A stretch of 64,000 nt of DNA from an uncultured Candidatus Saccharibacteria bacterium (GCA_964607415.1 CAZSKK010000001.1:260190-324189), one strand, 5' to 3'; shown: positions 16,212 to 40,694, numbered from the stretch's first letter. Made by a program: numbers and translations. The notes: generated by a model from the sequence alone, not told the origin.

Positions 16212-16220
16212 TGTTATAAT
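16212..16220 (+). promoter_or_regulatory. Extended -10 promoter element TGtTATAAT for rnpA; predicted transcript is leaderless or nearly so
   Basis: TGTTATAAT ends 6 nt before the rnpA ATG at 16227. Confidence 0.4.
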
Positions 16221-20246: not shown

Positions 20247-20308
20247 TAACCCCTCTCCCTTCGGGTATCTCCCCTTTAAAATAAAGGGGAGAATTAAAGA
20301 GGGGTTAT
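20247..20308. repeat. GC-rich structured intergenic element R1 (outer stem AACCCCTCT/AGAGGGGTT enclosing two hairpins)
   Basis: Inner hairpin 1 CCCTTCGGG; inner hairpin 2 TCTCCCCTTT-AAAAT-AAAGGGGAGA. It is homologous to elements at 28807 and 40628 with compensatory changes. Confidence 0.7.
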
Positions 20309-20340
20309 TAAACAACATTTTAAGTTATAATATATTGCCT

Positions 20341-23300
20341 ATGATTAACTTTGAAGCTGAGCTTAAAAAATTAAATTCCGAACAAAAACTGGCTGTTGAT
20401 ACAATCCAAGGTCCAGTTTTAGTTGTTGCAGGTCCTGGAACTGGTAAAACTCAAATGTTAGCTTTAAGAATTGCAAATATTTTAAGAACAACAGATACTA
20501 AACCTTCGAATATTCTTTGTTTAACATTTACAGAATCTGGCGTTTGGGCAATGCGTGAAAGACTTTTTAGAATAATTGGAACTGATGCTTACTTTGTTAG
20601 AATTCACACCTTTCATAGCTTTTGTAACGAAATAATTCAAACATTTCCCGAAAAATTTGCCTTTGCAAGAGAACTTAATCAACTTGATGATTTGACTAAG
20701 CTCAAAATTTTTAGGGAGATTTTGGACGATCTTGCTCAAAAAAGCGATGGCAAAGAAAAACTAAAGCTTGTTCCATTTAGTAACAAATACATGTTTTTGA
20801 ACGATATTAGTTCCAGCATTCAAACACTTAAACGTGAAGGAATTACACCTGATGAATTAAAAGAAAAAGCGGAGGTTAAACTTTCCGAATTAGAAGCTAA
20901 TCAAAAGATTAACAAAAGAACTGGAAAACCTACAGCCGATTGGCTTAGAGAAAGAGATCAAACCACTAAAAATTTTGAGCTTTTTGAAATCTATAATGCA
21001 TATAATCAAAAGTTGGTTGAAAACGGTTTATATGATTACGAAGACATGATTTTATTTGTGATTAAAAGGTTTGAGGAAGACGATCAGCTTCTAGCTTTTT
21101 ACCAAGAAAAGTTTTTGTATGTTTTGGTTGATGAGTTTCAGGATACAAATGGTGCACAAAATAAAATTTTGAAGTTACTTGGAAGCTTTGACAAAAGTCC
21201 AAACATATTTGCTGTAGGTGACGATGATCAAGCAATTTACAGGTTTCAGGGTGCAAATGTTGGAAATCTTATTGATTTTAAAAATAGCTTTGAAGACGTT
21301 AAAACAATCACTGTTACTACTAACTACAGATCTTCTCAATTGATTTTGGATCTTTCATCAAACTTAATTAAGCACAACACATTAAGACTTTCGAATATTG
21401 ATACAAGCTTAAATAAAAATTTAACTGCTGGAAACGCTATTCCAAATAAAAAAACAGAGGTTCATTCTTTTAAAGATTCCAGATCTGAAAACGAATTTAT
21501 TGCAAAAAAAATTCTCGAACTAAATTCTACTGGAGTTAAGTTTTCAGATATAGCTGTGTTATATAGAAATCATAAGGATTCTGAGGATTTAATTGATGTG
21601 CTTTTATCGGAAAAAGTTCCAATTAGACTTGCTGCAGGTAGAAATTCTTTAGATGAAAAACTTATTGATAATTTTATAACTCTACTTAAAGTAGTTCAAT
21701 ACACCGATAGCGATAGAGACTTTTTACTGTTTAAAGTTTTGTTCTTTGATTTTCTAAAATTTGAAAGAATTGATATTTTTAAAATTGTAAACTTTGCGCA
21801 TGAGAACAAAGAATCAATTTTTAATATTCTTTTGGATGGTGTAAAGCTTGAGAAATTAGGAATAAATAACATTGTTAATATTTCGGTATTACAAAATTTT
21901 GCAAGTAAAATTATAGATTGGAAAGCCGATTCCGAAAACCTAAGCTTTGCAGCCTTTATTCAAAAAATAATGTCGGAATCTGGTTTTTTAGATTATGTTT
22001 TTGGATCAGAACCATCAAACATTGAAGATATTAATTCTGTTAATTCTTTTTACGATTATATAAAATCAATCAATCGCGTAAATAAGCTTTTAAGCCTTGA
22101 ATCTTTTTTAAACGACATAAATCTTTTGAAAGAAAATAAACTTCAAGTTAGTGAAAAAGAGCTGGATGTTGATAAAGACGGAGTTAATTTAATGACAGCA
22201 CATAAATCAAAAGGATTGGAGTTTAAACACGTATTCATAATGAAATTTACTGAAAAAAGCTGGGGTGGAAAAGGCAGAAGCAAGATTATAAAGCTTCCAT
22301 TGCAAACTGCAGATGTTACGGATGAAGTAAGTAATCTTGAAGATGAACGCAGGCTTCTTTTTGTTGCAACTACAAGAGCTAAAGAGCATTTATATTTTAC
22401 GTATGCATCAGAGTATCCTTCTGGTAATACTACAACAGAGACAGGTCCTAGCATATTTATGTCTGAACTTGATGAAAAGCTGATTGAAAAGTTTAATGTT
22501 GAAAATGAAGAATTTAATATAGAACCTGTTAAAAAATTACTAAGTACTAAGCTTGGCTCACCTTATAACATTGAAGAAACTGAGTTTTTAAAACATGTAA
22601 TTGCCAAATTTAAATTGAGTGCCAGCTCATTAAATGAATATATTGAGTGCCCTTTAAAATTCAAATATAACAGACTTTTGAAAGTTCCGCACGCTAAGGA
22701 TAAAACTCTAAGCATGGGAACTGCCATTCACTTTGTAATGGAGCACTTTTATAAAAATTTAAAACTTGGTGAGCTTAAGGCTAAAGATTATTTTATATAT
22801 CAGTTCGAATGGGCTTTAAAAAAGGAACTGCTAGGTAAAGCCGAATATGAAGAAACTCTTAAAGAAGGTACACGAATTATTTCTGAGTATTATGATTATT
22901 ACGAAGGTACGTTTTTAAAACCTGCAGAAGTTGAATATGGATTTTATGGAAGAAATATTCTTTTAGAAAAAGATGGAATTGAACCAATATTACTTACAGG
23001 AAAAATCGATAGGGTTGAATATTTAAATACCAATCAAAGTTTGAATAGTTTGGACATTGATACCAGGGTTAAAATTGTAGATTACAAAACATCAAGTCCG
23101 AAGTCAAAAAACGATATTATGGGTAAAACTAAGTACTCCACGGGATCGATTTACAGACAGCTTGTTTTTTATAAACTACTTGCAGAAATTGATAACTTTT
23201 TTAGGCCTTCAACAAACTTTCCTAAATACAAAGTAGAACAAGTAGAAGTGGATTTTATTAAACCCGACAGCGGTAAATTTAAAAGAGAAGTTTTTGAAAT

Positions 23301-23433
23301 TCCAAATGAAGACGTCGAAAGTCTTAAAGAAACAATTTTTGGCATTATGACTAGAATTAGAAACTTAGAGTTTGGAGGAACAGATGAATATCCTCTTTGC
23401 GAAGAGTGTGAATATTGTAAAATGTTAAGTTAG
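20341..23433 (+). CDS. UvrD/PcrA-family helicase fused to a C-terminal PD-(D/E)XK nuclease with Cys cluster (AddA/AddB/Cas4-like)
   Basis: Walker A AGPGTGKT, motif II VLVDEFQDTN, motif III VGDDDQAIYRFQGA, TTNYRSS. C-terminus has GKIDRVE...VDYKTS nuclease motifs flanked by Cys residues (IECP; CEECEYC) in an Fe-S staple arrangement. ATG at 20341 preferred over TTG at 20335; TATAAT lies at 20326-20331. Confidence 0.75.
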   Translation: MINFEAELKKLNSEQKLAVDTIQGPVLVVAGPGTGKTQMLALRIANILRTTDTKPSNILCLTFTESGVWAMRERLFRIIGTDAYFVRIHTFHSFCNEIIQTFPEKFAFARELNQLDDLTKLKIFREILDDLAQKSDGKEKLKLVPFSNKYMFLNDISSSIQTLKREGITPDELKEKAEVKLSELEANQKINKRTGKPTADWLRERDQTTKNFELFEIYNAYNQKLVENGLYDYEDMILFVIKRFEEDDQLLAFYQEKFLYVLVDEFQDTNGAQNKILKLLGSFDKSPNIFAVGDDDQAIYRFQGANVGNLIDFKNSFEDVKTITVTTNYRSSQLILDLSSNLIKHNTLRLSNIDTSLNKNLTAGNAIPNKKTEVHSFKDSRSENEFIAKKILELNSTGVKFSDIAVLYRNHKDSEDLIDVLLSEKVPIRLAAGRNSLDEKLIDNFITLLKVVQYTDSDRDFLLFKVLFFDFLKFERIDIFKIVNFAHENKESIFNILLDGVKLEKLGINNIVNISVLQNFASKIIDWKADSENLSFAAFIQKIMSESGFLDYVFGSEPSNIEDINSVNSFYDYIKSINRVNKLLSLESFLNDINLLKENKLQVSEKELDVDKDGVNLMTAHKSKGLEFKHVFIMKFTEKSWGGKGRSKIIKLPLQTADVTDEVSNLEDERRLLFVATTRAKEHLYFTYASEYPSGNTTTETGPSIFMSELDEKLIEKFNVENEEFNIEPVKKLLSTKLGSPYNIEETEFLKHVIAKFKLSASSLNEYIECPLKFKYNRLLKVPHAKDKTLSMGTAIHFVMEHFYKNLKLGELKAKDYFIYQFEWALKKELLGKAEYEETLKEGTRIISEYYDYYEGTFLKPAEVEYGFYGRNILLEKDGIEPILLTGKIDRVEYLNTNQSLNSLDIDTRVKIVDYKTSSPKSKNDIMGKTKYSTGSIYRQLVFYKLLAEIDNFFRPSTNFPKYKVEQVEVDFIKPDSGKFKREVFEIPNEDVESLKETIFGIMTRIRNLEFGGTDEYPLCEECEYCKMLS

Positions 23434-23684
23434 GCTTCTTTTAGCACTTCAGGCAGTGTGCCTACTAAAGATTGCTCATCTAAAGGTAATGTTTCTACTT
23501 GTTGATTTAATTTATTTAAATCAATAAGTGCATCGTTACGCCTGATTTGAAAATTTTCCCAAGTTTCACCTGGTAGCCTTTCAATTATTTTAGCTTCCCA
23601 ACCTGAGCCATTGTTAGTATAAACATTCGTCATCAAAGGTATTCCTCCTAATGGTACTTCTTCAATGGATTCTGTCATTTCCAT
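23430..23684 (-). CDS. Hypothetical small protein
   Basis: 84-aa ORF co-oriented in the minus-strand gene string; no motifs. Confidence 0.3.
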   Translation of the reverse strand: MEMTESIEEVPLGGIPLMTNVYTNNGSGWEAKIIERLPGETWENFQIRRNDALIDLNKLNQQVETLPLDEQSLVGTLPEVLKEA

Positions 23685-23709
23685 GAAAATTAAAAAATAT
23701 TACAGTATT

Positions 23710-23994
23710 TTAGCTCTCTTCGTCTTTTCTAACCATGACCCAGTTACCATCCTCACCTAAAACAATTCTACCTCTTTTTTCAGTTTGAGTTGGGTATAAA
23801 TCAGGCTTCTGTATAATTCTTAAATCTGCCTCTCTCTTAAGAGCTCTAGCATTCATTGTATCTATTGCCACCTGGATACCGTTTCTTCCTAATTCATAAA
23901 GCTGTTCATCAGTTAATGCCTCATAATCTATTGATTCATCTTTCCAGCTTAGTATAAGTGGTCCTGTACCTGGCATGTTAAAAATCTGTAACAA
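23710..23994 (-). CDS. Hypothetical small protein
   Basis: 94-aa ORF co-oriented with neighbours; no motifs. Confidence 0.3.
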   Translation of the reverse strand: MLQIFNMPGTGPLILSWKDESIDYEALTDEQLYELGRNGIQVAIDTMNARALKREADLRIIQKPDLYPTQTEKRGRIVLGEDGNWVMVRKDEES

Positions 23995-24152
23995 TTAAAA
24001 AATTTAGGTGTGAGGCTTTAGGGTTTGAAGATTTTAGTTGCAAGAACTCTGTTTTCTTAAGTGTGTAATAGGAACAAAACATTTAAAAAGTTTAAGTATC
24101 AAAACTTAAATCATTCTAAACTAAGCCAAAAAAGATGACAAGGGGTTTGCTG

Positions 24153-24626
24153 CTACTTTTGGAAATCGAAAGAAAGATACTCGTATACATCTTTTGCATG
24201 GCCTTCAGGCTTTACCTTTTGCCATGACATAATAATTTTTCCAACTTCATCAATAGCATAAGTTGATCTCAATGTTCCCATATATCTCCTGCCAAACATA
24301 CTCTTTTCTACCCATATTCCAAAGGCTTCGTTTAGTTTGTGGTCAATATCAGACAACAACGTAAAGTTTAATCCATGCTTATTTATAAACTTTTGATGAG
24401 CTTTTATAGGATCAACACTTACTCCAATTATTTCGTATCCTAATTTTTTAATATCTTTGTTGTAATCTCTAAACTCACAGGCTTCAATTGTGCAGCCAGG
24501 AGTATCATCCTTTGGATAAAAATATAACACATATTTTTTACCAATTTGTTCACTCAAATCTGTCTGTGTGCCATCTAGCTTTACTAGTTTTATATTTTGA
24601 GGAACAAAATCTCCGTTTTGTAACAT
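24153..24626 (-). CDS. bcp: Thiol peroxidase / peroxiredoxin Bcp
   Basis: YFYPKDDTPGCTIEACEFRD peroxidatic-Cys motif; start placed at MLQNGDF to match Bcp N-termini. Confidence 0.85.
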   Translation of the reverse strand: MLQNGDFVPQNIKLVKLDGTQTDLSEQIGKKYVLYFYPKDDTPGCTIEACEFRDYNKDIKKLGYEIIGVSVDPIKAHQKFINKHGLNFTLLSDIDHKLNEAFGIWVEKSMFGRRYMGTLRSTYAIDEVGKIIMSWQKVKPEGHAKDVYEYLSFDFQK

Positions 24627-24633
24627 AGTTGTT

Positions 24634-24936
24634 TCATTGTTCAACATTAGAATTTATATATTGGTCATATTCATACTTGACTTCACAGAAATGGTTTTTT
24701 GTATTAGCTAGTCTTTCATCATAACCGTCGCTAAGCTCATTTTCCAGTTCAATAATGCTATTTTCAATACTAGCTATGTATGCTGAAAGTTCTAATAATT
24801 CATCATTTGAGAAATCTGGTAAATTTCTAATGGGATAATCTCCAATCAAATTTGTAATTGCATTATTAATTTCAACGATATAACCGTATAAAGCTGGATG
24901 CTCCAAATGTGTCCCTGCAGTTCTTAATTTATACAT
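24634..24936 (-). CDS. Hypothetical protein
   Basis: 100-aa ORF; no motifs. Confidence 0.3.
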   Translation of the reverse strand: MYKLRTAGTHLEHPALYGYIVEINNAITNLIGDYPIRNLPDFSNDELLELSAYIASIENSIIELENELSDGYDERLANTKNHFCEVKYEYDQYINSNVEQ

Positions 24937-24951
24937 AATTGGTATGATTTA

Positions 24952-25731
24952 CTACTTTGGTAATGGTATTAAAGCTCTAACATGCTTTTTATATTTCTGA
25001 TATTCCTTATTCTTATCATATTTCTTTTCCAGCATTGGAATTCCTGAAACTTTTATAAGCAAAAAATCTATTAGTAAAGGGCTAATTAATGCCACATAAC
25101 CAAAATCAACTGACAATGCAATTAAAAATAATCCCCACCATAGTGTTGCTTCGCCAAAATAATTTGGATGTCTTGAATATTTCCAAAGACCACTTTTCAT
25201 TATTGCATCTTTAGATACTTTTCCAGCTTTTTTCTTATTAACAAACTTAGTAAGTTCAAAATCACCTCTAACCTCAAAATAAAAGCCAAAAAGCCAAATT
25301 GATATACCTATAAAATCAACAAGGTTTAATTTTTGTAAACCTCCGTATGTATTAATCAAAACAATGCTTGATGCAATTGGAAGCATTAAAATACCTTGTA
25401 AAATAAATATTTGAAGATACGATCTAATTACAAAATTTTTACCCCAGTTTTTTCCCCAATTGGCGTATCTAAAGTCTTCGGCTTTTCCCTTATTTCTTAA
25501 AAAAATATGTATGGTAAGTCTAAATCCCCAGATACAAACTAAAACTGTTGCAACTACTTTTCGTGCATTAAAATCATCTGATGTGAAAAACGTAACTAAG
25601 GCAACTAAAGCAAATCCCAATCCCCAGAATATATCTATAATTGAATTATTTTTAAGATATAAAGCTAAAAAGAAGGCAAGGTGCATTAAAATTGCTACAG
25701 AAATTATTGCGTAAATTATTTGCAGCTCCAT
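24952..25731 (-). CDS. DUF1295 / ICMT / steroid-5-alpha-reductase-like membrane methyltransferase-family protein
   Basis: Multi-TM protein with C-terminal GLWKYSRHPNYFGEATLWWGLFLIAL signature. Confidence 0.5.
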   Translation of the reverse strand: MELQIIYAIISVAILMHLAFFLALYLKNNSIIDIFWGLGFALVALVTFFTSDDFNARKVVATVLVCIWGFRLTIHIFLRNKGKAEDFRYANWGKNWGKNFVIRSYLQIFILQGILMLPIASSIVLINTYGGLQKLNLVDFIGISIWLFGFYFEVRGDFELTKFVNKKKAGKVSKDAIMKSGLWKYSRHPNYFGEATLWWGLFLIALSVDFGYVALISPLLIDFLLIKVSGIPMLEKKYDKNKEYQKYKKHVRALIPLPK

Positions 25732-25805
25732 ATGGGCCAGTTTAAGTGTAAAAGTAAGTTTAAGAGCAAAACTTGTTATATTCTAAACTATTTTTATCAA
25801 GCTTA

Positions 25806-26219
25806 CTATTGTTCACCGTAGGGAAGATTCTTTATCCCGTCAAGCAAGGTAATTTTTGCGCTGTTGTTTTGCTTTATAATAAGGCTAAGAATGCGCTTAA
25901 TTTTCTCTGTCACTTGGTATGGTGGATACCCTTGAACCATAGTTTTTCCATATGCAAGAATTTCACCACTAACTATAAACTCTTCCGTTCCTATTTGTTC
26001 TGAAGCCCTAAGAAATCTTTTTTTGGTTTGATGAATTTCAGTCAATGAAATTCCATAATCTGAAAAGCCTTTAACAATCCATTCAAGAATTTCAGGCTCT
26101 ACAAAAGATAGACTCAACGTCAGAAAAAATTCACTTTCAATCTCTCTAACATTTAGTGTATCAGCAATTTGGTTAGGATCTTGAATTGGATAAATATCAA
26201 TACCGTCTAGGCTGGACAT
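25806..26219 (-). CDS. Hypothetical protein
   Basis: 137-aa ORF; no motifs. Confidence 0.3.
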   Translation of the reverse strand: MSSLDGIDIYPIQDPNQIADTLNVREIESEFFLTLSLSFVEPEILEWIVKGFSDYGISLTEIHQTKKRFLRASEQIGTEEFIVSGEILAYGKTMVQGYPPYQVTEKIKRILSLIIKQNNSAKITLLDGIKNLPYGEQ

Positions 26220-26285
26220 ACTAGTACCTTAAAATTTGTAGTTATAGCTATTGTAAATTATTTAGGCAAAACGTAAAAGTAAAGT

Positions 26286-26552
26286 TTATACTTCTACCGA
26301 GACATACTTTTCACAAATACCAACAATAACTGCAACATCATCCTCGCATAAATCTCTTTCTGAATTTGATGTTACTAAAAGTGATTTGAAATCTTTATAA
26401 GCAGTATTATTGAAGCTAACGTCTTCATATCCTAGAGCCTCAAGATCTTTTATTATACTTTTAGATTGGTTCTCCAGCCATACTGGAATAACAATTTTAA
26501 CGTAACCTGGAAATTCTTCGAATTTTGAATGTAATGGCATTATATTTTTCAT
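26286..26552 (-). CDS. Hypothetical protein
   Basis: 88-aa ORF, 3-nt gap to the upstream gene. Confidence 0.3.
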   Translation of the reverse strand: MKNIMPLHSKFEEFPGYVKIVIPVWLENQSKSIIKDLEALGYEDVSFNNTAYKDFKSLLVTSNSERDLCEDDVAVIVGICEKYVSVEV

Positions 26553-26555
26553 ATA

Positions 26556-26993
26556 TTAACTTTCATTTAAAGAATAAGTTTCTAAAAATTGAACAGGTGC
26601 ATTTATGATACCTCTAACATCATTTGCTACTAGTTCCAGCTTATTTTGTAAGCCTTCTTCTTGCGGATACGTACATTCAATTGTAAATATCCTTACAGGT
26701 TCATTCTGATTGTATAGAATTAGCGAATGTTCACTAAGTAGTATTTCTATACCTAATGCTTTAAGTCTTCTTTCTATGTTTGATATTGAAATAGAGGATT
26801 CAACAGGTACTTGTATCTTAATAACTAAAGCCTGTAGTAAATTCACTCCAGCAGAAAATGTTTCCCCTATTAAAATCACTTTTGCTTTATCTCCAAAAGA
26901 TTCCGCGTAAAGAGTAGCCCATGCTTCACTACTTATTTCATCTAATCTTCTATATCTCATAAAAAATGGAGGATGAGCTTCCACAAGCTTCAT
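26556..26993 (-). CDS. Hypothetical protein
   Basis: 145-aa ORF downstream of ppa in the same orientation. Confidence 0.35.
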   Translation of the reverse strand: MKLVEAHPPFFMRYRRLDEISSEAWATLYAESFGDKAKVILIGETFSAGVNLLQALVIKIQVPVESSISISNIERRLKALGIEILLSEHSLILYNQNEPVRIFTIECTYPQEEGLQNKLELVANDVRGIINAPVQFLETYSLNES

Positions 26994-27044
26994 CCTCCAT
27001 TTAAATTTAAATTAGCTTTAGTTAGGTGTTTTAAAGTTGAAACT

Positions 27045-27725
27045 CTATTTGCAGTTACATCCTTCACACTCACAATTTTCACACTCGCACTCCGCACAAT
27101 GCCCATGTTCACATTCTTCGCAATCACATTCACAATCAACTGTGTCAAGTTTTGGTGAGTATTCGCTGTCATATCTTTGTGCACATTCTTCAACAATCTT
27201 AACAGCTTCAGCAAAATCAAAGTACCCATTAACCTTGCAAGGTCCAGGTTTTTTTAAATCTTTATAATGTTCCCAGTAATAAGTTGTTTCTTTTTCAAAA
27301 TATTCACCTAAATCAGCAATAGACTTAATATGATCTACTCTTTTATCATCATTTAAAACACAAATTACTTTGTCGTCTACTTCGCCTCCATCTTCAAATT
27401 TCATTATTCCAATAATTCTTGCTTCTACTAACGATCCAGGAATTAAAGGTTCAGTAACATTTACAATTACTGCATCTAATGGATCACCATCCAAATCCCA
27501 GGTTTGAGGAATTGCTCCATATGTAAAGGGATAAACAAGCGATGAATATCCAACTCTATCAAGTTTCAAATGACCAGTTTCAGTAATTAATTCATATTTA
27601 TTTAACGTGTGTGAGTTTAATTCAACAATCACATTAATAATACTTTTTTCTTCGTTAGCAAATGGATCTACAATATGAAGTAGATTGGGCATAAAAATTG
27701 AAGGTGGTATTGGTAAGTTAGCCAT
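27045..27725 (-). CDS. ppa: Family I inorganic pyrophosphatase with a C-terminal Cys/Glu/His-rich tail
   Basis: PPase core DRVGYSSLVYPFTYGAIPQTWDLDGDPLDAVIV...EARIIGIMKFEDGGEVDDKVI; final ~30 aa are CECDCEECEHGHCAECECENCECEGCNCK. Confidence 0.8.
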   Translation of the reverse strand: MANLPIPPSIFMPNLLHIVDPFANEEKSIINVIVELNSHTLNKYELITETGHLKLDRVGYSSLVYPFTYGAIPQTWDLDGDPLDAVIVNVTEPLIPGSLVEARIIGIMKFEDGGEVDDKVICVLNDDKRVDHIKSIADLGEYFEKETTYYWEHYKDLKKPGPCKVNGYFDFAEAVKIVEECAQRYDSEYSPKLDTVDCECDCEECEHGHCAECECENCECEGCNCK

Positions 27726-27888
27726 TTTTTGAATTTAAAAATGTAAATTTATTCGTTAATTTGTTAATTTGTGCAAAGTTAATTAGGTTAGTATATTTGT
27801 GTAAGCAATTAGCCTGGAACTAATTAACTTATTAACTACTGGCTTGCCAGTCCTAAAAAGTATACAATAGTTAAGAATTATACACAAT

Positions 27889-28803
27889 ATGACTATGTCT
27901 CATTTTTCAAAAACTCAAAAATTTCTTGTTTACTTTGGCGTTGTAATTTTTATTGCAACAGTTTTTGCGGCGTTTATTTTTGCAATTCAAAGTTTTAGAA
28001 TCAAATCTTTTAAACTAATATTTGTAGAGCCAGACATAATTGTAAATACAAAAAATTCTTTAGGTGAAATAAACTCCGAAAAAAAGTTTTACTTTGGGGA
28101 AACCATAGAAACAAAAGACGTTGTAACTCAAATCAACTTCAAAAATGGTTTTATAATTTCAAATACAAAAGGATCTTTGGATCTTAAAAAAGATGATGCA
28201 AAAATTTCATTTGGGCTTTTCTTTTTTAATATTTCATCGCCATATTCTATTGTAGTAAATGAAAAACGTGTATTCTTAAATCCCGGATTTAAAGGTTTTT
28301 TTGATTCCCAAACCGAAACTTTATACACTATTGAAGGCACCGGAAGCTTTAATTCTGTTGAATTTAATGAAGATAATATTGTGCTTATTACTTCTGATAC
28401 TATTTCACAATCTGAAATTGATAGATCGATGGTTGCCAATAGCGTTAGGCTTAAGAACTTTTTAAATAATATTTCTAAGTTTGAAGCTTTAAGTAGCTTC
28501 TGGACTGATTTTTCGGCTCCTGAACTTTTTGAAATTTCTCCTGAAAATGAAGCTATACTAGGCATTCCTTTTTTAACTATAAGTATAAAAACGGAGCCTG
28601 ATATTAAAATCTCACTTTCCGATATAACTCTTGGCCAATCTGATGGGAATGGAGATTTTAGCTTTAATACTGTTCTTAAACCAGGGATTAATAATGTAAC
28701 AATTTTCTTGGATGATGAACTGCAGAATAGAAATACAGTTGAGCTTATATATATTTATGAAACGAACGCAACTTCAGGACCGGTATCTTACACTACTTTG
28801 TAA
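27889..28803 (+). CDS. Hypothetical membrane-anchored protein
   Basis: N-terminal TM (LVYFGVVIFIATVFAAFIFAI); no motifs. Confidence 0.4.
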   Translation: MTMSHFSKTQKFLVYFGVVIFIATVFAAFIFAIQSFRIKSFKLIFVEPDIIVNTKNSLGEINSEKKFYFGETIETKDVVTQINFKNGFIISNTKGSLDLKKDDAKISFGLFFFNISSPYSIVVNEKRVFLNPGFKGFFDSQTETLYTIEGTGSFNSVEFNEDNIVLITSDTISQSEIDRSMVANSVRLKNFLNNISKFEALSSFWTDFSAPELFEISPENEAILGIPFLTISIKTEPDIKISLSDITLGQSDGNGDFSFNTVLKPGINNVTIFLDDELQNRNTVELIYIYETNATSGPVSYTTL

Positions 28804-28806
28804 TAA

Positions 28807-28886
28807 ATAACCCCTCCGGCACTAAAAGTGCCACCTCCGCTTTAAAAAGGGGAGAAAGGCGCGTAGCACCAGGAGGGAGGGGTTAT
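28807..28886. repeat. GC-rich structured intergenic element R2 (ATAACCCCTCC...GGAGGGGTTAT)
   Basis: 11-bp outer stem; inner hairpins GGCAC-TAAAA-GTGCC and CTCCGCTTT-AAAAA-GGGGAG. Sits between convergent genes and probably acts as a bidirectional terminator. Confidence 0.65.
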
Positions 28887-28890
28887 TCAA

Positions 28891-29973
28891 CTACCCATTG
28901 TGCTTAAAAAGCATTATATCTCCATCTTTCACAATATATGTTTTTCCTTCTAACCTAACTTTGCCTTTTTCTTTAGATTTAACCCAACCACCAAACTCCA
29001 CAAAATCTTGCCAGAAAACTACATCTGCGGCAATAAAGTTTTTCATTATATCTGTATGAATAGCTCCAGACGCTTGTTGTGCGTTTTCACCTTGCCTGAT
29101 AGTCCAGGCCCTGACTTCTGTAGGGCCTGAGGTAAAATATGAAATCAAACCTAAATGCTTGTACGCCTCTTGAGTTAATGTTTGTAAGCCAGTTTTTTCT
29201 ATTCCTAATTCTTTCATAAATTCAGCTCTCTCATCTTCTGTCATATTTGTAAGCTCTGCCTCTGTTTGAACATCCATAGGAACTACAATATTCTCACCAA
29301 CTAATGGTTTAATTTTAGCCATAACTGCATCTTTTTCTGCATCTTTTACATTTAAAAGAAATATTACAGGTTTATCCGTTAATAAAAACATTGTTTTTCT
29401 AAGTTCTTCAACTTCTTCATTGTTTGAATGTGGAAATTCAACAGCAAGCTTTCCGTTAGATAGATGCTGCATAAAAGCTTCAATAAAATCAACAACTGGT
29501 TTCATTTTTGCGTCGGTTCTTGCAAATCCTTTAATTGAAGATTTCTTTTTTTCAACTGTTTCAATATCTTTTAAAATTAATTCTGTATTAATTAATTCTA
29601 TGTCTCTTGCTGGATCAATAGAATTTTCTACGTGAGTAATATTTGGATCCTCAAATCCTCTAACTAAATGTACGATTGCAGAAACTTCTCTGATGTTTGC
29701 TAAAAATTGATTTCCAAGTCCTTCACCACTTGCTGCACCTTTTACAAGGCCCGCTATATCAACAAATTCAACAACTGCATTTGTAATTTTTGCTGGTTTT
29801 TCAACTTCTGCAACTTTGTTTAATCTTTCATCAAAAACTGGAACAATTCCAAAGTTTGGATCGATTGTTGCAAAAGGATAATTTGCAGCTAAAACTTTTT
29901 GACTTGTTAGTGCATTAAATAATGTGGATTTACCAACATTTGGTAATCCTACAATTCCTAAAGATAGTTTCAT
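28891..29973 (-). CDS. ychF: Ribosome-binding ATPase YchF (Obg-family GTPase)
   Basis: G1 GIVGLPNVGKSTLFNALT and a C-terminal TGS domain. Confidence 0.85.
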   Translation of the reverse strand: MKLSLGIVGLPNVGKSTLFNALTSQKVLAANYPFATIDPNFGIVPVFDERLNKVAEVEKPAKITNAVVEFVDIAGLVKGAASGEGLGNQFLANIREVSAIVHLVRGFEDPNITHVENSIDPARDIELINTELILKDIETVEKKKSSIKGFARTDAKMKPVVDFIEAFMQHLSNGKLAVEFPHSNNEEVEELRKTMFLLTDKPVIFLLNVKDAEKDAVMAKIKPLVGENIVVPMDVQTEAELTNMTEDERAEFMKELGIEKTGLQTLTQEAYKHLGLISYFTSGPTEVRAWTIRQGENAQQASGAIHTDIMKNFIAADVVFWQDFVEFGGWVKSKEKGKVRLEGKTYIVKDGDIMLFKHNG

Positions 29974-30058
29974 ATATAGTCTGCTTATTCAACTTACCTC
30001 TCTGTAGCAGAGGTCGATCATGCATTTTGTTTCATGATCACGTGAGATAAATAAAATT

Positions 30059-30107
30059 AGCTGATAGCTGATAGCTGATAGCTGATAGCTGATAGCTGAT
30101 AGCTGAT
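30059..30107. repeat. Perfect tandem array (AGCTGAT)x7 in the divergent intergenic region
   Basis: 49 nt of exact 7-bp repeats; palindromes GATCATG...CATGATC and TCACGTGA lie just upstream. Confidence 0.85.
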
Positions 30108-30260
30108 ATTACATTTTAGATTACTTAGAACAATTAGTGAACTTAGATTAATTTACCAAAATGATTATAGCAGGAAATTTTAAATATATAATCAGAATAT
30201 TGCATGTCGACAGTTAATGCCGTCTCGTGCTATAATAGATTATTAGTTTATTAAAAATAT

Positions 30261-31310: not shown

Positions 31311-31345
31311 AGAGTAACCTTAACTTAAAAGAGGAAGTGATTGGA

Positions 31346-33856: not shown

Positions 33857-33894
33857 GAGTACTGTAATATTTAATTAGTTAAGTAATTTAAGAA

Positions 33895-34671
33895 ATGTCT
33901 TTGTTAGTTTTTAAAGCAATTTCAGAAAATCCAAGAGAATCTTTATCGAGACGTGCGCTAGCCACTTCAATACATAATGAGCTTTCACAAATCTTTGATT
34001 CACTGCAAATCAATGACATACCTGAAATTAATATTTTAGATAGCCAAGAGGAAGATTCAGTACAAAAAGCTCTAAAACTTTTGAGTCAGTTTGATTTAGA
34101 AGAAATTAAAGATTTTATTGAGAAAATAACTGTAAAGGCAACCATTCTGCAGCTCCACACAAATGAATATAAAATTTATTTAGACAGTCTTTTTTTGCCC
34201 TTGTTAAAAGCAAAATTGTATAACGATGAGTTTAATGTCTCAGTTACAGAATCATTTAAGGGGGGAGATCTTTCCAGTAGAGCTACTTTGTTTCTTGCTA
34301 GAGCTGGTATTGTAAAGTTAAAGCAGCTTTTAAATCTAACTTTTCCAGAACTTTTGGCTATTTATAATAATAATTACGCTGCCAGCTCTTCCGCCAATAA
34401 AATTAGTGACGCTCTTCAATTAAAAGGAATGCGCTTATTGAATAGCTATGAAAGAAGGCTAACAAAATTAGACGCTCTGGGTACAAAAGGTGCAAGTTTA
34501 TGCATTTGCGCGGGAATTCTTACTCAAGAAGAATTATGGGAAAAACAATATTCTGGAGCTCAACTTCAAAAAAATCTTGCCCAATATATAGTTCATAGGA
34601 AAAGATATTTGGATCTTAAGTTCCAACAGATACCAATAGTTAAATCATGGATTAATGAAAACGAACATTAA
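33895..34671 (+). CDS. Hypothetical protein with RNAP alpha-CTD-like HhH module (paralog of 35830..36618)
   Basis: SSRATLFLARAGIVKLKQLLNLTFPELL...KISDALQLKGMRLL resembles the alpha-CTD fold pattern; shares motifs with its paralog. Confidence 0.45.
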   Translation: MSLLVFKAISENPRESLSRRALATSIHNELSQIFDSLQINDIPEINILDSQEEDSVQKALKLLSQFDLEEIKDFIEKITVKATILQLHTNEYKIYLDSLFLPLLKAKLYNDEFNVSVTESFKGGDLSSRATLFLARAGIVKLKQLLNLTFPELLAIYNNNYAASSSANKISDALQLKGMRLLNSYERRLTKLDALGTKGASLCICAGILTQEELWEKQYSGAQLQKNLAQYIVHRKRYLDLKFQQIPIVKSWINENEH

Positions 34672-34739
34672 CTTTCTAACACCTTAGAAAGCCTCTAGCC
34701 TGTATAACTTTCAGTAATACTTACTATCTTTTCTAGAAG

Positions 34740-35789
34740 TTAATTATTCCTACCTAATCTTCTTTCATTAATAAACCTTTCAATTACAATGTGTGTTATT
34801 TCTGAAAGGATTAAAAGTGAATGTAAGTAAGTTCTTCCTTCTTGTGTGTCCATACTACTAACCATAAACTTAACAAAATCTTCTCTTAATTCTTCTGGGC
34901 ATAGCAGGCATTGTAAAGGAATTTCGTACATATTCATAACATCTGCTCTGTCTAACCAAATATTGTTACCCCTTACGTGAATATCTGAAATCATTAAATT
35001 TTCAGGAATATTTACGCCAAGATTTTGGAATATATCCACTAGCCGATATGAATTTCCACTACCATCCAGTAGTAAATTTCTTAAATATTGACTGAGTTCA
35101 TTAATTATAGGATTTACTGTAATATCTCTACTTGCTTTTAAATACTTATCAAATTCCTCCTCGTTTTGTATATTTGTAAAATCAAATTCAGGATCATTTC
35201 TAACATCATCTTGATACTTGTCCCATATATTAACAATATACTGATATGTAAACCAATCTTTATTTAAAACAGCATCCCTTACTTTTTTGTTAGAAAAATA
35301 ATCATCATAGTTCTTCCTTGATTCCTGTCGTCTTTTTCTTGCATGGACAATACTGACTTCTGCTCTTTTATGAATTTCCTCATCAACAAAAGGTGAAATT
35401 TCAGCTATCAAAGCTTGAATTAGAATTTGTCTTTCTTCCTTTGTATAACCTTTATTGTATTTTTCTATGTCAGCGTCAACCTTATCTTGAATAAATTTTG
35501 CAATTGAGCTCCAAGCTTTTTCTTCAAGATTATGAGTCCAGTGGTGGCTGTATTCAGCTTTCTTATCTTCGGGAAAATTAACAAGATTTACGTACATTGT
35601 TACAAGTGTTTTGGCCTGAAAAGAAAGCTGATACTGCGCAAATGCATATGCTTTCTGATAAATCTGAAGATCCAAAGTCTTTTCTTCTTCAGGTGTTAGG
35701 TTAAATGGATTTTCTGATTGTGGAGTAACCTCACTTTCAACATCTTTGTCATTTGGCAAATTTGGTAAATTATTAAATGAATCACTCAT
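34740..35789 (-). CDS. Hypothetical protein
   Basis: 349-aa ORF flanked by the two alpha-CTD-like paralogs; no motifs. Confidence 0.4.
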   Translation of the reverse strand: MSDSFNNLPNLPNDKDVESEVTPQSENPFNLTPEEEKTLDLQIYQKAYAFAQYQLSFQAKTLVTMYVNLVNFPEDKKAEYSHHWTHNLEEKAWSSIAKFIQDKVDADIEKYNKGYTKEERQILIQALIAEISPFVDEEIHKRAEVSIVHARKRRQESRKNYDDYFSNKKVRDAVLNKDWFTYQYIVNIWDKYQDDVRNDPEFDFTNIQNEEEFDKYLKASRDITVNPIINELSQYLRNLLLDGSGNSYRLVDIFQNLGVNIPENLMISDIHVRGNNIWLDRADVMNMYEIPLQCLLCPEELREDFVKFMVSSMDTQEGRTYLHSLLILSEITHIVIERFINERRLGRNN

Positions 35790-35829
35790 ATTTAGTATAT
35801 AACTAATTAATATACTCTATTAGTAAAGT

Positions 35830-36618
35830 TTGGTGTACAATTTATCAATGGCCTTATTTGTATTTGAAGCTGCTGAACAAAATGAAGATACTCCTCTGAA
35901 CAAGTCCTATGCGCACTCCTTGTATCTTGCTCTTTCATCAGCTCTTGAGGTTACACAGTCACAGGATATATTTTTTCAAGAAATTGTAGATCAATTAACT
36001 CATGAACCTCAGTCTGCAAATGTTGTTGACGTGGCATTAAATTTACTAGTGACAAAGCTTAAATTCCCAAATAGTTCAATTTTTGATGTTTGGCGAAGAT
36101 CAAAAGAATTGGAAATATATGTTAGTCCATCTGATTTTTATAATTACTTGAGTTTAAGGGGTTTGCTTCAAAAGCCCATGGAAATAAAGGTCATAGGAAT
36201 ATCTGAGTTATTTCGTGATAATAAACTAACCTCAAGTGCTTTACAAAGAAATGGTATAGGCACTTTAAAACAGCTGATAAACTTAACCCTAACAGAGTTA
36301 GGCTCTTTAGATAGAATTGGAAAAACTAATATTCAGCATGTACTCCAAATGCTTACACCGCTAGGATATAGTCTACTTACTGAAAGTCAAAGAAAGCGAA
36401 GTAAATTAGATAAACTCGGTACCGATGGTGCGGTGTTTTCAATTAGATGTAAAATTTACAATCTGGACGATTTACTGAATTCTGAATTTTTAACTGCATA
36501 TAAAACAAATAGGAATTCTGCGAACGAACTTGGAAGATTAATGTTTGGTATGAATGAATTTGAACAATCAACTTTCATGAAAGGATGGAGAAAATTTAAT
36601 AAGCTTGACGAACAGTAA
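35830..36618 (+). CDS. Hypothetical protein with RNAP alpha-CTD-like HhH module (paralog of 33895..34671)
   Basis: LTSSALQRNGIGTLKQLINLTLTELGSLDRIGKTNIQHVLQMLTPLGYSL follows the alpha-CTD signature; N-terminus also conserved with the paralog. Confidence 0.45.
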   Translation: MVYNLSMALFVFEAAEQNEDTPLNKSYAHSLYLALSSALEVTQSQDIFFQEIVDQLTHEPQSANVVDVALNLLVTKLKFPNSSIFDVWRRSKELEIYVSPSDFYNYLSLRGLLQKPMEIKVIGISELFRDNKLTSSALQRNGIGTLKQLINLTLTELGSLDRIGKTNIQHVLQMLTPLGYSLLTESQRKRSKLDKLGTDGAVFSIRCKIYNLDDLLNSEFLTAYKTNRNSANELGRLMFGMNEFEQSTFMKGWRKFNKLDEQ

Positions 36619-39600
36619 CTATATGATCTTCTTCAACCACTGCCCCGTGTAACTTTCGGAAACATTTGAAATTTGCGCTGGAGTTCCTTCGGCAATTATT
36701 TGACCTCCTCCTTGTCCTCCCTCGGGACCTAAATCAATGATCCAATCTGCTGTTTTTATTACATCAAGATTATGCTCAATTACAATAACTGTATTTCCCC
36801 TAGCTACTAGCCCGTGTAGCACAACCAAAAGTTTTCTAACATCTTCAAAATGTAATCCTGTGGTCGGTTCGTCTAAAATATATAATGTTTTACCTGTATA
36901 TCTTTTAGATAACTCCGATGAAAGTTTAACTCTTTGTGATTCTCCACCAGAAAGTGTTGTGGCACCTTGTCCTAGCCTAATATATCCTAACCCAACATCA
37001 TTTAATGTTTGAAGTTTACTTTTAATTACTGGAACTTTATCAAAAAATTCAACAGCTTCTTCAACAGGCATATTCAAAACCTCGGAGATATTCTTACCTT
37101 TATAGTCTATTTGAAGTGTTTCTCTGTTATATCTTAAACCTTTGCATTCTTCACAAGTTACATAAACATCAGGCAAAAACTGCATCGCAATTTTAATTAC
37201 TCCAGCTCCTTCACACTTTTCACACCTTCCACCTTTAACATTGAAGCTAAATCTGCCAGATTTATAACCCCTGATTTTTGACTCTTTGGTTTGAGCAAAA
37301 ATCTCCCTTATTTGGGTAAAAACTCCAGTATAAGTTGCTGGATTTGATCTTGGTGTCCTTCCGATTGGAGATTGATCAATATCAATAATTTTATCAATGT
37401 TCTCAATTCCACGTAGTTCTTTGTAAGCACCAGGGTTATCACTAGCCCCATTTATCTGCTTTGCTAGTGCTTTATACAGCACGTCATTTACGAGTGAGGA
37501 TTTTCCTGAGCCTGAAACTCCAGTTATACTTACAAATCTACCCAATGGAATTTCCAGGTCAACGTTTTTAAGATTATTATGAGTGACGCCATAAAGCTTA
37601 ATGTAATTTCCATTAGATTTTCTAAATTCATGAATACCTATTTCTTTAAGCTCTTTTTTGATTTCAGTTATATCAATTTTTCTTTTGCCACTTAAATACT
37701 TTCCTGTGATAGATCTTTCCTGTTTTATTATGTCTTCTACATTTCCAGTAGCAACAACTTCGCCGCCGTGTTCACCTGCTAAAGGTCCTATGTCCACAAC
37801 GTAATCAGCTTTCCTTATCGTATCTTCATCATGTTCAACAACAACAACAGTGTTTCCAATATCCCTTAAATTTTCTAAGGTTTTAATCAGCCTGTCATTA
37901 TCACGCTGATGTAGGCCAATTGATGGCTCATCAAGTACATACATAACTCCAGTTAAACCTGTTCCTATTTGAGAGGCAAGCCTTATACGCTGAGATTCTC
38001 CCCCCGAAAGTGTTCTTGCAGTCCTATTTAGAGTTAAATATTCAAGTCCAACAGAGTTTAAAAAATTCAATCTTACGGCTATCTCTTTAAAAATTTGTTT
38101 ACCAATTTGCATTTCTTGCTCAGAAAGCTTATCTTCGCTAGCTAAAATTTCTGGAAAAGTAAAAAGTTCAGTAAGCACTGAACCTGCAATCTCCCCTCCT
38201 GATAGAGGATTAGGGGGAGTGTCTTCTCGGGATTGAAGTGATGTTATCCACCTGTGCGCATCTTTAATAGACATATTTCCAATATCTACAATATTTTTGC
38301 CTTCAATTGTTACGGCCAAAGCTTCTTTTTTAAGTCTGTATCCTTTGCATTCTGCGCAGGGTTTTTCAATCATGTATTGCTCAATTTCAGATCTAATATA
38401 TTCTGAATCTGTTTCGCTGTATCGTCTTAGAAGATTTGGAATTACGCCTTCAAATTCAATTTTTAGTGATCTCATTTCTCCGTTCGAATCTTCATATTCA
38501 ATGTCAAATTTTTCATTTTTGACTCCATAAAGTAAGATTTCAAGCTGCTCTTCAGGCAATTTTCCAAGAGATTTTCTTAAATCAATTTTCTTTTTTTCAG
38601 AAACTTTCTGAATTAATCTCATCGTAAATGATTTTGGGTTTTCAATAACTCTATTCCAAGGATAAATTCCACCCTCCATAACAGTTAACCTTGGATTATA
38701 AATATTTGATGGATCAATTTCTTTTATTGTGCCAAGACCATTACAAACAGGGCATGCACCAAAAGGAGAGTTAAAAGAAAAAGTGTGTGGTTCAATTTCT
38801 GAAAAAGATTGTCCTGATTCTGGATCTACTAACTTTTCAGAGTAAAAAACATCATCTGATTGGCCATCAGGAAGATTCACTAAAACTTCTCCATCTCCTA
38901 AATTAATTGAAAGCTCTATTGAATCAGTTAATCTTTTTAAAAGCTCTGAATCATCTTTTGAGTTTTTATCAATAACAAGTCTATCAATAACAAGTTCAAT
39001 ATTGTGTTTTTTAAATTTATCAAGCTTTATTTCTTCTTCAAGACTATAAACATTTCCATCAACTCTAACTCTTACAAAACCCTGAGATAAGAATCTTGAA
39101 AACAATTCTTCGTATGTTCCTTTTCTATTTTTGATTAGGGGTGCAAGTACTATTATTTTTATTGAAGATAGATCTCCCTCTCCCTTGGGAGAGGGTTGGG
39201 GTGAGGTAAACCTCATGTAGTAATTTAAAATATCATCTACAATTTGTTGAACTGTTTGTTTTTCTAATCTTCTACCTGAAATTGGACTTCTTGCATGGCC
39301 GCATCTTGCAAAAAATAATCTTAAATAATCGTAAATTTCGGTAACAGTTCCAACAGTTGAACGAGGATTGTGACCTGCAGATTTTTGATCTATTGAAATT
39401 GCTGGAGATAAACCTTCTATAAGATCCACATCAGGTTTTTCCATTAAACCCAAAAATTGCCTTGCATATGCAGACAATGATTCGACATACCTGCGCTGAC
39501 CTTCAGCATACAATGTATCAAACGCTAAAGATGATTTTCCAGAGCCTGAAAGGCCTGTAATTACCGTAAGTTTATCTTTTGGAAGATCTACGTCTATATT

Positions 39601-39654
39601 CTTAAGATTATTAGTCCTAGCACCTCTAATTTTGATTATATCCATGTGTTGCAT
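36619..39654 (-). CDS. uvrA: Excinuclease ABC subunit A
   Basis: [61 protein letters not shown], both ABC modules and zinc-finger Cys clusters. Start placed at [13 protein letters not shown]; the extra 29 codons in the ORF track lie upstream of the predicted promoter. Confidence 0.9.
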
Positions 39655-39684
39655 AACTGAGAAATGTGAAGTTTGTAACAGAAG

Positions 39685-39693
39685 ATTATAACA
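39685..39693 (-). promoter_or_regulatory. Extended -10 promoter (TGtTATAAT on minus strand) for uvrA
   Basis: Plus-strand ATTATAACA is the reverse complement of TGTTATAAT, 31 nt upstream of the chosen uvrA start. Confidence 0.4.
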
Positions 39694-39830
39694 CAGCCTC
39701 GCCCCTTTCGCATTCACGAAGACCCTCTCCTGAGACAACATATTATGCTGTAGAATGGAGCTAATAAAATCTCAATAGGCTAATATCCTGTCCTCGGGGT
39801 GGCGAGCAAAGTGAGCCGGGTGATGCTGTG

Positions 39831-40589
39831 TTACTCCACCAACAGCAGCAAATACATTGCTCCAATTCCTAAACAAAAAGCTGTAATTTCCAACGCATAT
39901 TTAAATATGCCTGATTTTTTGTGGATTTCTGGAAGTAAATCAGCCAAAGCGATGTAAATAAATTGGCCTACAACTAAGGGTACTAAATATTTTTCGGAGT
40001 TCTCAGTTACAGAACTTATTGCAACGCCTATAATCGCACCCAAAACCGCTGTTAATGCTGTCAACACATTCACAATTAATATTTTTCTTCTCCTCAGCCC
40101 TGCATATTTTAATACCCCAGCGTCTGCAAGTTCTTGTGGGATTTCGTGTAGACTTACAGCAATCGTAGTTGCTATTCCTGTTGCAGGTGCTACTGCAAAG
40201 CTTGCAGCAATTGCAAGACCATCTAAAAAATTGTGAAAAGCATCTCCTATTAAATTTACCCTAACCAACACGCTTTTATTCTTGTGCTCATGTGGGTGAT
40301 CAATTTCTTCTCTGGAATCATGGCTACAATGGAAATAGGCTTCAATTAAAAGCATTAGTATGACTCCTGTAAATATCAAAAGTGTTGTTTGATTTTCGTA
40401 ACCAAATTGTTCGATGTGCTCACCAAGTAGATGAATTAGAGCATCAGCTAAAAGACTTCCAGCTGCAAATGCAACAATCGCAGTTATAATTTTGTCCCCG
40501 GATTTTATATTTTTTAAAAGTACAAGAAGTCCTAGGAATGAAATTGAGCTTACAATTAAGGTTGCAATTAATGAGTAGATTAGTTCCAT
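39831..40589 (-). CDS. ZIP-family divalent metal transporter (ZupT-like)
   Basis: HNFLDGLAIAASF and HEIPQELADAGVL signature helices; 8 TM. Confidence 0.8.
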   Translation of the reverse strand: MELIYSLIATLIVSSISFLGLLVLLKNIKSGDKIITAIVAFAAGSLLADALIHLLGEHIEQFGYENQTTLLIFTGVILMLLIEAYFHCSHDSREEIDHPHEHKNKSVLVRVNLIGDAFHNFLDGLAIAASFAVAPATGIATTIAVSLHEIPQELADAGVLKYAGLRRRKILIVNVLTALTAVLGAIIGVAISSVTENSEKYLVPLVVGQFIYIALADLLPEIHKKSGIFKYALEITAFCLGIGAMYLLLLVE

Positions 40590-40627
40590 ATTTATTATAG
40601 TTTAGAATTAAGATGAATGATTCAAGA

Positions 40628-40694
40628 ATAACCCCTCCGGCTCTCCGAGCCACCTCCCCTTTGATTAAAGGGGAGGAATTAAAGGAGGGGTTGT
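40628..40694. repeat. GC-rich structured intergenic element R3 (ATAACCCCTCC...GGAGGGGTTGT)
   Basis: Inner hairpins GGCTC-TCC-GAGCC and CCTCCCCTTT-GATT-AAAGGGGAGG. Linker AATTAAA is identical to R1. It overlaps the last ~10 codons of the inositol-monophosphatase-like gene. Confidence 0.7.

Follow-up and report, generated by a model that had tools for sequence, protein, structure and literature searches.

Repetitive extragenic palindromic (REP) sequences and REPINs are reportedly mobilised by RAYT tyrosine transposases in E. coli and Pseudomonas (Nunvar 2010; Bertels & Rainey 2011; Di Nocera 2013), and the Rickettsia palindromic elements (RPEs), of 100-150 bp, are said to be specific to Rickettsia. 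[quoted passage not shown] Here we describe three GC-rich elements, R1, R2 and R3, in a stretch of 64,000 nucleotides from an uncultured Candidatus Saccharibacteria bacterium (GCA_964607415.1 CAZSKK010000001.1:260190-324189), hereafter the window. They probably constitute a new family of small palindromic mobile repeats, MITE/REPIN-like in kind, and this GC-rich hairpin repeat likely behaves as selfish mobile DNA in the AT-rich genome of a candidate phylum. The genomes of Patescibacteria are small and considered to contain little mobile DNA, and an active palindromic repeat that remodels genes would be noteworthy there. The window has a compact gene layout (67 open reading frames (ORFs) in 64 kb), and the closest named homologues of its YchF belong to Candidatus Dojkabacteria (Patescibacteria/CPR, the candidate phyla radiation; 58-65% identity).

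R1-R3 are small (61-78 bp), non-coding and bounded by inverted repeats of 9-11 bp, TAACCCCTC(C)/(G)GAGGGGTTA, which enclose two hairpins. A preliminary description of this DNA had placed three elements at these sites and folded them as three-way junctions, and both points are supported by the termini, by minimum free energy folds (z -4.9 to -6.5 with RNA parameters, -4.9 to -6.7 with DNA parameters) and by a covariance model of the terminal module which, run over the whole window with filters off, returned R1-R3 only (Table 1; next match E 0.19). The terminal inverted repeat forms the outer stem of the junction, which follows from it as a matter of geometry. Folding energies were about equal on both strands with either parameter set. 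The same description had recorded a compensatory exchange of T-A for C-G between R1 and R3 in the basal pair of hairpin 2, three distinct but fully paired hairpin-1 sequences, an AATTAAA linker common to R1 and R3 with an insertion in R2, and three different genomic contexts; all of these hold, the insertion being 22 nt long and the contexts a divergent gap (R1), convergent gene ends (R2) and an overlap with the 3' end of the IMPase-like gene (R3). R1 and R2 carry exact 9-mer termini, while the right terminus of R3, GAGGGGTTG, has one mismatch to GAGGGGTTA that gives a T.G pair. Hairpin 2 of R2 contains a G.G mismatch (CTCCGCTTT/AAAGGGGAG), a point absent from the preliminary description, and R2 is therefore counted as a partly decayed copy.

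Table 1 Coordinates of the elements, their parts, neighbouring genes and other features of the window.
Feature	Position	Strand	Remarks
R1	20247-20307	none	Gap between divergent genes; covariance model 52.2 bits, E 2e-11
R1 left terminus	20247-20255		TAACCCCTC
R1 hairpin 1	20257-20265		CCCTTCGGG
R1 hairpin 2	20268-20292		(T)CTCCCCTTT-AAAAT-AAAGGGGAG(A)
R1 linker	20292-20298		AATTAAA
R1 right terminus	20299-20307		GAGGGGTTA
PMT_2 glycosyltransferase	18500-20218	-	Neighbour of R1
AddA-like helicase-nuclease	20335-23433	+	Neighbour of R1
R2	28808-28885	none	87-bp gap between convergent genes; covariance model 31.1 bits, E 4e-6
R2 left terminus	28808-28816
R2 hairpin 1	28818-28832		GGCAC-TAAAA-GTGCC
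R2 hairpin 2	28834-28854
R2 insertion	28855-28876		22 nt
R2 right terminus	28877-28885
304-aa gene	27889-28803	+	Neighbour of R2; no assigned identity
ychF	28891-29973	-	Neighbour of R2
R3	40629-40693	none	Overlaps IMPase 3' end; covariance model 50.6 bits, E 5e-11
R3 left terminus	40629-40637
R3 hairpin 1	40639-40651		GGCTC-TCC-GAGCC
R3 hairpin 2	40653-40676		CCTCCCCTTT-GATT-AAAGGGGAGG
R3 linker	40677-40684		AATTAAA(G)
R3 right terminus	40685-40693		GAGGGGTTG
IMPase-like gene, 3' end in or beside R3	40665-40697	-	Encodes ...DTTPPLIPPL and stop; whole gene 40665-41459
GC-rich palindrome in uvrA	39172-39204	-	33 nt, CCCTCTCCC-AAG-GGAGAGGG core, in frame; uvrA 36619-39741
GIY-YIG ORF	46104-46415	+	103 amino acids; Pfam E 2.6e-18
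GTGTCATTCCGAGGGAAATCGAGGAAT repeat, inverted copies beside GIY-YIG ORF	46023-46042, 46424-46443
GTGTCATTCCGAGGGAAATCGAGGAAT repeat, orphan copies	5503-5522, 47301-47320
(GCTGATA)x7 tandem repeat	30061-30107		Upstream of ychF
GC-rich stretch	39778-39840		ZIP gene 3' end to uvrA start
GC-rich fragments	16090-16215		Divergent intergenic gap

The elements resemble REP sequences and REPINs in being short, GC-rich, extragenic palindromes, often in inverted pairs, with compensatory change in their hairpins; they are non-autonomous, lie mostly downstream of genes and occasionally inside them, and have a presumed partner gene flanked by repeats. In REPs, one end of a lone stem, of at least some 8-9 bp, bears the tetranucleotide GTAG or CGTC (TGTC/CCTC) in unpaired form (PMC3733652), whereas R1-R3 start with TAACCCCTC, lack a GTAG/CGTC tag, and have two to three hairpins per unit in place of that single 8-9-bp stem. 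Membership in the GTAG/CGTC REP superfamily was rejected on the missing tag and the different stem layout.

R3 has inserted at the 3' end of a gene. The stop codon of the IMPase-like gene (40665-40667) falls within hairpin 2 of R3, and the protein ends in ...GRMILDTTPPLIPPL, while orthologues of 65-67% identity end in ...GRMILV and have no such tail. R3 thus substitutes for the ancestral stop and adds about ten codons; the suggestion in the preliminary description that R3 supplies the last codons of this gene is confirmed, since both tail and stop derive from R3 and have no counterpart in the orthologues. In a relative sharing 87-89% identity across the adjacent zip and uvrA genes, DNA homology with the window ends at ...ATATTAG and restarts at TTCTTGAATC just upstream of the ZIP gene; between these limits the window has R3 and the relative has an AT-rich spacer of about 165 bp without an element. 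An element is likewise missing at the place of R2 in a strain with a 97%-identical YchF, in which ychF is followed by unrelated sequence. No copy was present in about 16 kb from close relatives or in 21 kb from a relative with a 69%-identical YchF, and a Dojkabacteria genome held one variant copy; the distribution is therefore patchy, as expected of mobile DNA. For R1, an exact look-up of the AddA-like protein in other assemblies returned no record.

Short-read assemblies break at these islands. Contigs from six independent sequencing runs (Logan assemblies) ended within R3, five of the six at the same base of the hairpin-2 loop, whereas contigs read through the diverged R2 and broke instead at the (GCTGATA)7 tandem repeat upstream of ychF, which is the exact break point of four independent assemblies. 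The breaks in R3 suggest that R3-like 31-mers recur in the genome, with strain microdiversity as an alternative cause. Insertion polymorphism was also seen at one metagenomic locus downstream of a DUF559 gene, where the element was missing in one sample (L262), present in another (L261), and in the third (L260) carried a nested 49-bp palindrome within its hairpin 1. With three copies in the window, the breaks at R3, the absences in relatives and these three states, the repeat is both multi-copy and polymorphic for insertion. The elements share with MITEs their small size, multiple copies, terminal inverted repeats, possible AT-rich TA-type target, presence/absence polymorphism and alteration of neighbouring genes. 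They differ from MITEs in that a parent insertion sequence with matching inverted repeats was not found, that the inverted repeats hold hairpins of their own, and that hairpin 1 is hypervariable yet perfectly paired. The yeast mitochondrial GC clusters resemble R1-R3 as GC-rich palindromic islands scattered over AT-rich DNA, but they are elements of a eukaryotic organelle and are unrelated to R1-R3 in sequence.

A second coding alteration lies in uvrA, where an in-frame GC-rich palindrome adds 11 residues to UvrA just before the UvrA_inter domain and is absent from a relative (L127) that is 88% identical in the gene. This palindrome is not a TAACCCCTC-terminated copy, but its layout resembles metagenomic 'class B' modules that lack hairpin 1, and it is possibly related to R1-R3. 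In Candidatus Dojkabacteria GCA_030950485.1 (L279, 16134-16177), the module variant AACCCCCTC-TGCCGGAGGACCGGCA-TCTCCCCGAAGGGGAGA lies within a called ORF, apparently in frame by its sequence. Entry into coding sequence (the R3 tail, the uvrA insert and the Dojkabacteria ORF) is a likeness to RPEs, as these are described, together with the occurrence of palindromic repeats in intergenic DNA and in frame in genes of an AT-rich, reduced genome. By the same descriptions RPEs are not GC-islands of R1-R3 sequence, and the present host is a relative of Patescibacteria, not Rickettsia. Protein ends and annotation are changed by such repeats, as in the IMPase tail, the in-frame uvrA insert and spurious ORFs.

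Metagenomic copies disclosed a larger architecture. The terminal module runs from TAACCCCTC through a hypervariable, perfectly paired hairpin 1 to a conserved hairpin 2, (C/T)CTCCCCTT(T)...(A)AAGGGGAG(G/A), and full-length relatives of about 130-200 bp carry an inverted module at each end (TAACCCCTC-h1-h2 ... h2'-h1'-GAGGGGTTA). An alignment of 18 copies from one contig group gave elements of about 180 bp with a left module and a diverged, inverted right module, the latter consisting of h2' GTCCCCTTA...TAAGGGGAC, h1' GCC-GAAG-GC and then GAGGGGTTA. Spacings between paired termini clustered at 117-160 and 177-314 bp. Complete elements were flanked by TAAC...GTTA in 44 of 46 cases, ten of these by TTAAC...GTTAA, and by no longer direct repeat. 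On either strand, each window copy fitted the module model, both fits being centred on one hairpin 2, with the minus-strand hairpin 1 replaced by TTTAATT; no inverted pair could therefore be shorter than the window copies. R1-R3 accordingly appear to be maximally collapsed derivatives in which one hairpin 2 serves two modules and no hairpin 1 is left in the right module.

We scanned one genome per species for TAACCCCTC-N30-60-GAGGGGTTA, leaving the interior unconstrained, and obtained at least 120 loci. The matches listed include Mesorhizobium and other Rhizobiales, Pontibacter and other Bacteroidota, Patescibacteria, Saccharibacteria, Nitrospirota, Planctomycetota and others; among them, interiors held nested C-run/G-run palindromes, several with a CCTCCCCTTA...TAAGGGGAGG hairpin resembling hairpin 2. 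A metagenome scan with the pattern TAACCCCTC-N8-25-CTCCNCTTT-N3-6-AAGGGGAG returned at least 134 matches at no fewer than 120 loci, and the module covariance model found 169 matches in 568 kb. By these counts the family is large and distributed across many bacterial phyla. Chance or convergent likeness among unrelated GC-rich hairpins is effectively refuted: short C-run/G-run hairpins evolve easily and the first genome scan required the termini, but the hairpin-2 pattern is expected by chance 0.02 times in the 64-kb window (32% GC), R1 shares 86-91% BLAST identity over about 50 nt with many metagenomic copies, covariance-model E-values reach 1e-11, and module order and linker are shared.

The paired regions change in concert. 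As MAFFT alone failed to align hairpin 1, the covariance model was started from 14 length-normalised sequences, in some of which one or two bases of the loop or linker had been edited; covariation was counted from real matches only (124 distinct rows of 150 aligned, from the 169 matches), in an alignment fitted to the structure model. All five hairpin-1 pairs and three hairpin-2 pairs changed on both sides, one pair occurring as CG in 45, GC in 38 and UA in four rows, and 90.8% of cells were paired. The covariation score in this model-fitted alignment was 0.176, against 0.040 in shuffles (0/500 reached it) and at most 0.033 with slid partners. The search pattern placed no constraint on hairpin 1, and 39 of its 70 distinct versions had a stem of at least 4 bp; shuffles averaged 12 such versions and never exceeded 19. 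The helices are thus under selection for pairing, and the helix-preserving covariation first noted on three copies extends to 124 distinct ones.

The manner of this change is symmetric between the strands. One-sided changes across the five hairpin-1 pairs numbered 0, 0, 0, 0 and 4, and double changes 22-44 at four pairs and three at the loop-closing pair. Only eight of about 1500 paired cells were G.U (about 0.5%), and the distinct hairpin-1 stems contained 182 Watson-Crick and two G.T pairs. Functional RNAs as a rule accept wobble pairs, and intermediate states can be seen in them. The perfect symmetry of the two strands agrees with hairpins required to form in DNA, or with palindromes that templated processes renew; a process of this kind is seen directly in the nested 49-bp palindrome of L260. 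The commonest hairpin-1 loop, TTC closed by C-G, reads C-GAA-G on the opposite strand, a very stable DNA mini-hairpin. The loop is therefore strand-neutral, and we dropped an argument for RNA from a UUCG tetraloop.

The best-surviving alternative, which we nevertheless consider unlikely, is a cis-acting structured RNA family whose hairpins at transcript 3' ends would obstruct 3'-5' exonucleases or serve as factor-dependent terminators, with selection on the RNA accounting for the covariation. The fold of R1-R3 is very stable and the covariation extensive, which favours this reading, but the elements are palindromic at every level and each strand gives the same fold, and the scarcity of G.U pairs sits poorly with an RNA. 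Position gives a mixed picture. Module ends lay beside gene 3' ends (66) more often than beside gene starts (43), 30 of the 66 within 20 nt of the stop, and clustered just past the stops of co-oriented genes; in five cases the TAA of the module itself served as the stop codon. This proximity could mean a TAA/TTAA-type target, or merely tolerated insertions. The co-orientation of modules with upstream genes lost its meaning once elements proved to carry a module at each end. Polarity in the window is mixed, R2 being sense to one gene, R3 antisense to both the IMPase-like and ZIP genes, and R1 placed in the promoter gap between divergent genes. Although a T-run directly follows hairpin 2 in some metagenomic relatives (L142, L158, L197, L139 and others), no terminator-like T-tract was called at R1, R2 or R3 on either strand, where the tails read TTATT. 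Copies are missing at the same gene ends in close relatives, and R3 and the uvrA insert alter coding sequence. In favour of the RNA reading, REP elements are generally known to stabilise upstream mRNA (Di Nocera 2013).

Database and literature searches gave no RNA family. In the window only two tRNAs passed the Rfam 15 gathering threshold, and no family did so at R1-R3; permissive scans of R1 and R3 yielded far sub-threshold noise only, and a scan of 17 related loci found no match at the elements. The screen of GC-rich intergenic regions by Stav 2019 contains nothing matching R1-R3, and literature searches with the literal TAACCCCTC, GAGGGGTTA and CTCCCCTTT/AAAGGGGAG returned primers and unrelated matches only. 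Intrinsic-terminator and Rfam membership were rejected for want of a T-tract call and of a family match. The preliminary description had found no known family, and none has emerged from Rfam 15; among the readings it offered, a REP-like site at the DNA level is favoured, while a small RNA, an attenuator or a terminator gains no support from the strand symmetry, the scarce G.U pairs, the mixed polarity and the missing T-tract. Islands of the R1-R3 type mimic structured RNAs in GC-based screens of AT-rich genomes.

That the elements are DNA sites used by the host, for protein binding or recombination (an integron attC-like, nucleoid-protein or gyrase site), is more doubtful still. Their likeness to attC lies in the AAC...GTT ends, in a long palindrome, itself imperfect, whose top varies and is sometimes branched, and in genes placed between successive sites. 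The TAAC...GTTA termini recall attC R boxes, but the flanks of the window copies misfit RYYYAAC/GTTRRRY; the top is folded and branched, but an unpaired central spacer and extrahelical bases are both missing, and pairing in the outer stem is perfect. Much as cassettes would, DUF559 ORFs occur between one element and the next, yet no integrase gene or cassette array was found, the neighbours are housekeeping genes, and the window copies are single and scattered. Membership in attC was rejected on its box and spacer features, only AAC/GTT fitting, with perfectly paired stems, no array and housekeeping neighbours.

A mobile repeat without its own enzyme would need one supplied in trans, and the element-bearing loci offer candidates. 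Clustering of ORFs over 241 such loci (1.5 Mb) brought out a recurrent small family, DUF559 (Vsr-like; Pfam E 4e-27 to 3e-37). The DUF559 hidden Markov model matched ten ORFs in the 1.5 Mb; eight of these lay no more than 45 nt from an exact terminus, compared with 12% of 1304 genes overall (Fisher p 2e-6). Geometry was constant, with ...GAGGGGTTA, about 25-60 nt, the DUF559 ORF, about 0-25 nt and TAACCCCTC... in succession; spans from GAGGGGTT to AACCCCTC that held the ORF measured 422, 459 and 463 bp in a Mesorhizobium metagenome-assembled genome (MAG) and two metagenome contigs, and a GC-rich contig showed the same bracketing by termini. In the reverse direction, DUF559 proteins picked from the protein database regardless of the element had a module beside the gene at three of three loci, and in Petrimonas the TAA of TAACCCCTC doubles as the stop codon of the DUF559 gene. 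A Patescibacteria MAG (L062) carried a GIY-YIG ORF (Pfam E 5e-15) between ...TCGAGGGGTTAC and GTAACCCCTCGA... in the same manner. A search for a transposase between inverted modules (L144, L150, L181, L088) met DUF3316, ValRS-neighbour genes, TrpA/B and AspRS instead.

We tentatively suggest that TAACCCCTC...GAGGGGTTA elements may be non-autonomous partners or homing targets of stand-alone DUF559 (Vsr / PD-(D/E)XK-like) and YhbQ-like GIY-YIG nucleases. The bracketing, found in Bacteroidota, Alphaproteobacteria and other groups, is a lead and not a demonstrated mechanism. On the reading that we consider probable, R1-R3 are short non-autonomous copies of a GC-rich, nested-palindromic mobile DNA family. 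Such copies would spread by way of a DNA intermediate, single-stranded or cruciform, that is recognised in trans by a nuclease or transposase encoded outside the window, for which the small DUF559 and GIY-YIG nucleases bracketed elsewhere by the same termini are the best candidates; effects at the RNA level, such as 3' transcript hairpins and a new protein tail, would be by-products and not the cause of the elements. This arrangement differs from REP/REPIN in that the 9-nt terminus is identical across several phyla and the bracketed genes are DUF559 and GIY-YIG, with no RAYT among the Pfam-scanned subset of window ORFs. The terminus shared across phyla and the DUF559/GIY-YIG bracketing are the most interesting part of the finding. 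If true, a repeat-nuclease partnership would be analogous to REPIN-RAYT with different enzymes and would explain the identity of the terminus across phyla; if the link is causal, it would provide a new propagation route for miniature repeats, a function for two very common uncharacterised nuclease families and a testable role for the large DUF559 family. No such partnership was found described in the literature searched, and among the listed titles and abstracts on DUF559 none concerned repeats and no described function was found.

Several observations weigh against the interpretation of R1-R3 as mobile repeats. Copy number in the genome beyond the window is judged from the assembly breaks, which strain microdiversity could also cause. 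An exact, high-identity empty site for R1-R3 was not recovered, and no target-site duplication could be defined in the 46 complete elements, their TA/TTAA-like flanks being indistinguishable from a lengthened inverted repeat. Strong covariation would be expected of a functional RNA as well, and module ends that abut co-oriented stop codons could reflect a selected RNA function at 3' ends. The window contains no DUF559 gene and no TAACCCCTC-flanked nuclease gene, and no transposase among the subset of its ORFs that was Pfam-scanned; a parent transposon was not found, inverted pairs 0.9-4.5 kb apart enclosing housekeeping genes only. The three DUF559 loci of the reverse test form one clade, with named homologues in Bacteroidales such as Paludibacter, Dysgonomonas and Petrimonas.

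The GIY-YIG ORF of the window is flanked by inverted copies of a different, TGTC-tagged repeat, GTGTCATTCCGAGGGAAATCGAGGAAT, of which there are also two orphan copies (chance expectation 0). An alignment by eye is possible between GTGTCATTCCGAGGGAAATCGAGGAAT and a repeat of the GIY-YIG-bearing Patescibacteria MAG. We regard GTGTCATTCCGAGGGAAATCGAGGAAT as a second repeat family in the window, with the GIY-YIG gene as its candidate partner. CGTC REPs are said to have no known transposase (PMC3733652); the flanking seen here hints that this 'transposase-less' CGTC/TGTC REP superfamily may have GIY-YIG partners. Separately, on a contig with the Flavo-1 RNA (L138, 4588-4824), two CGTC-tagged hairpins, CGTCACCCCGAACTTGTTTCGGG and CGTCATGCTGAACTCGTTTCAGC, stand on either side of a GIY-YIG ORF.

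Other palindromic and GC-rich sequences were noted in passing. A palindromic element of about 75 bp, GTCATTTCGACC...GGTCGAAATGAC, is nested within TAACCCCTC elements of about 180 bp (L150 ~5700-5800, L166, L234). Kribbella has a bare 16-bp palindrome, GAGGGGTTAACCCCTC (L120 1030), with further entries at L088 5156 and 5219, and Streptomyces (L010, L014) a 640-bp repeat bounded by GAGGGGTTAACCCC...GGGGTTAACCCCTC in which no ORF was recognisable. In the two Dojkabacteria assemblies L278 and L279, genes for an ABC ATPase, a glycosyltransferase and RecQ are intact in one and split in the other, by pseudogenisation or assembly error. Within the window, the unexplained GC-rich stretch from the ZIP gene 3' end to the uvrA start had no Rfam match at E <= 0.1, and the spacer between these genes is 89 nt long in the window and 286 nt in the relative. 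The divergent intergenic gap at 16 kb holds the GC-rich fragments GAGGGGAGGTTAGGG and CCCTCTCTAGAGGGG, which may be decayed relics of related palindromes.

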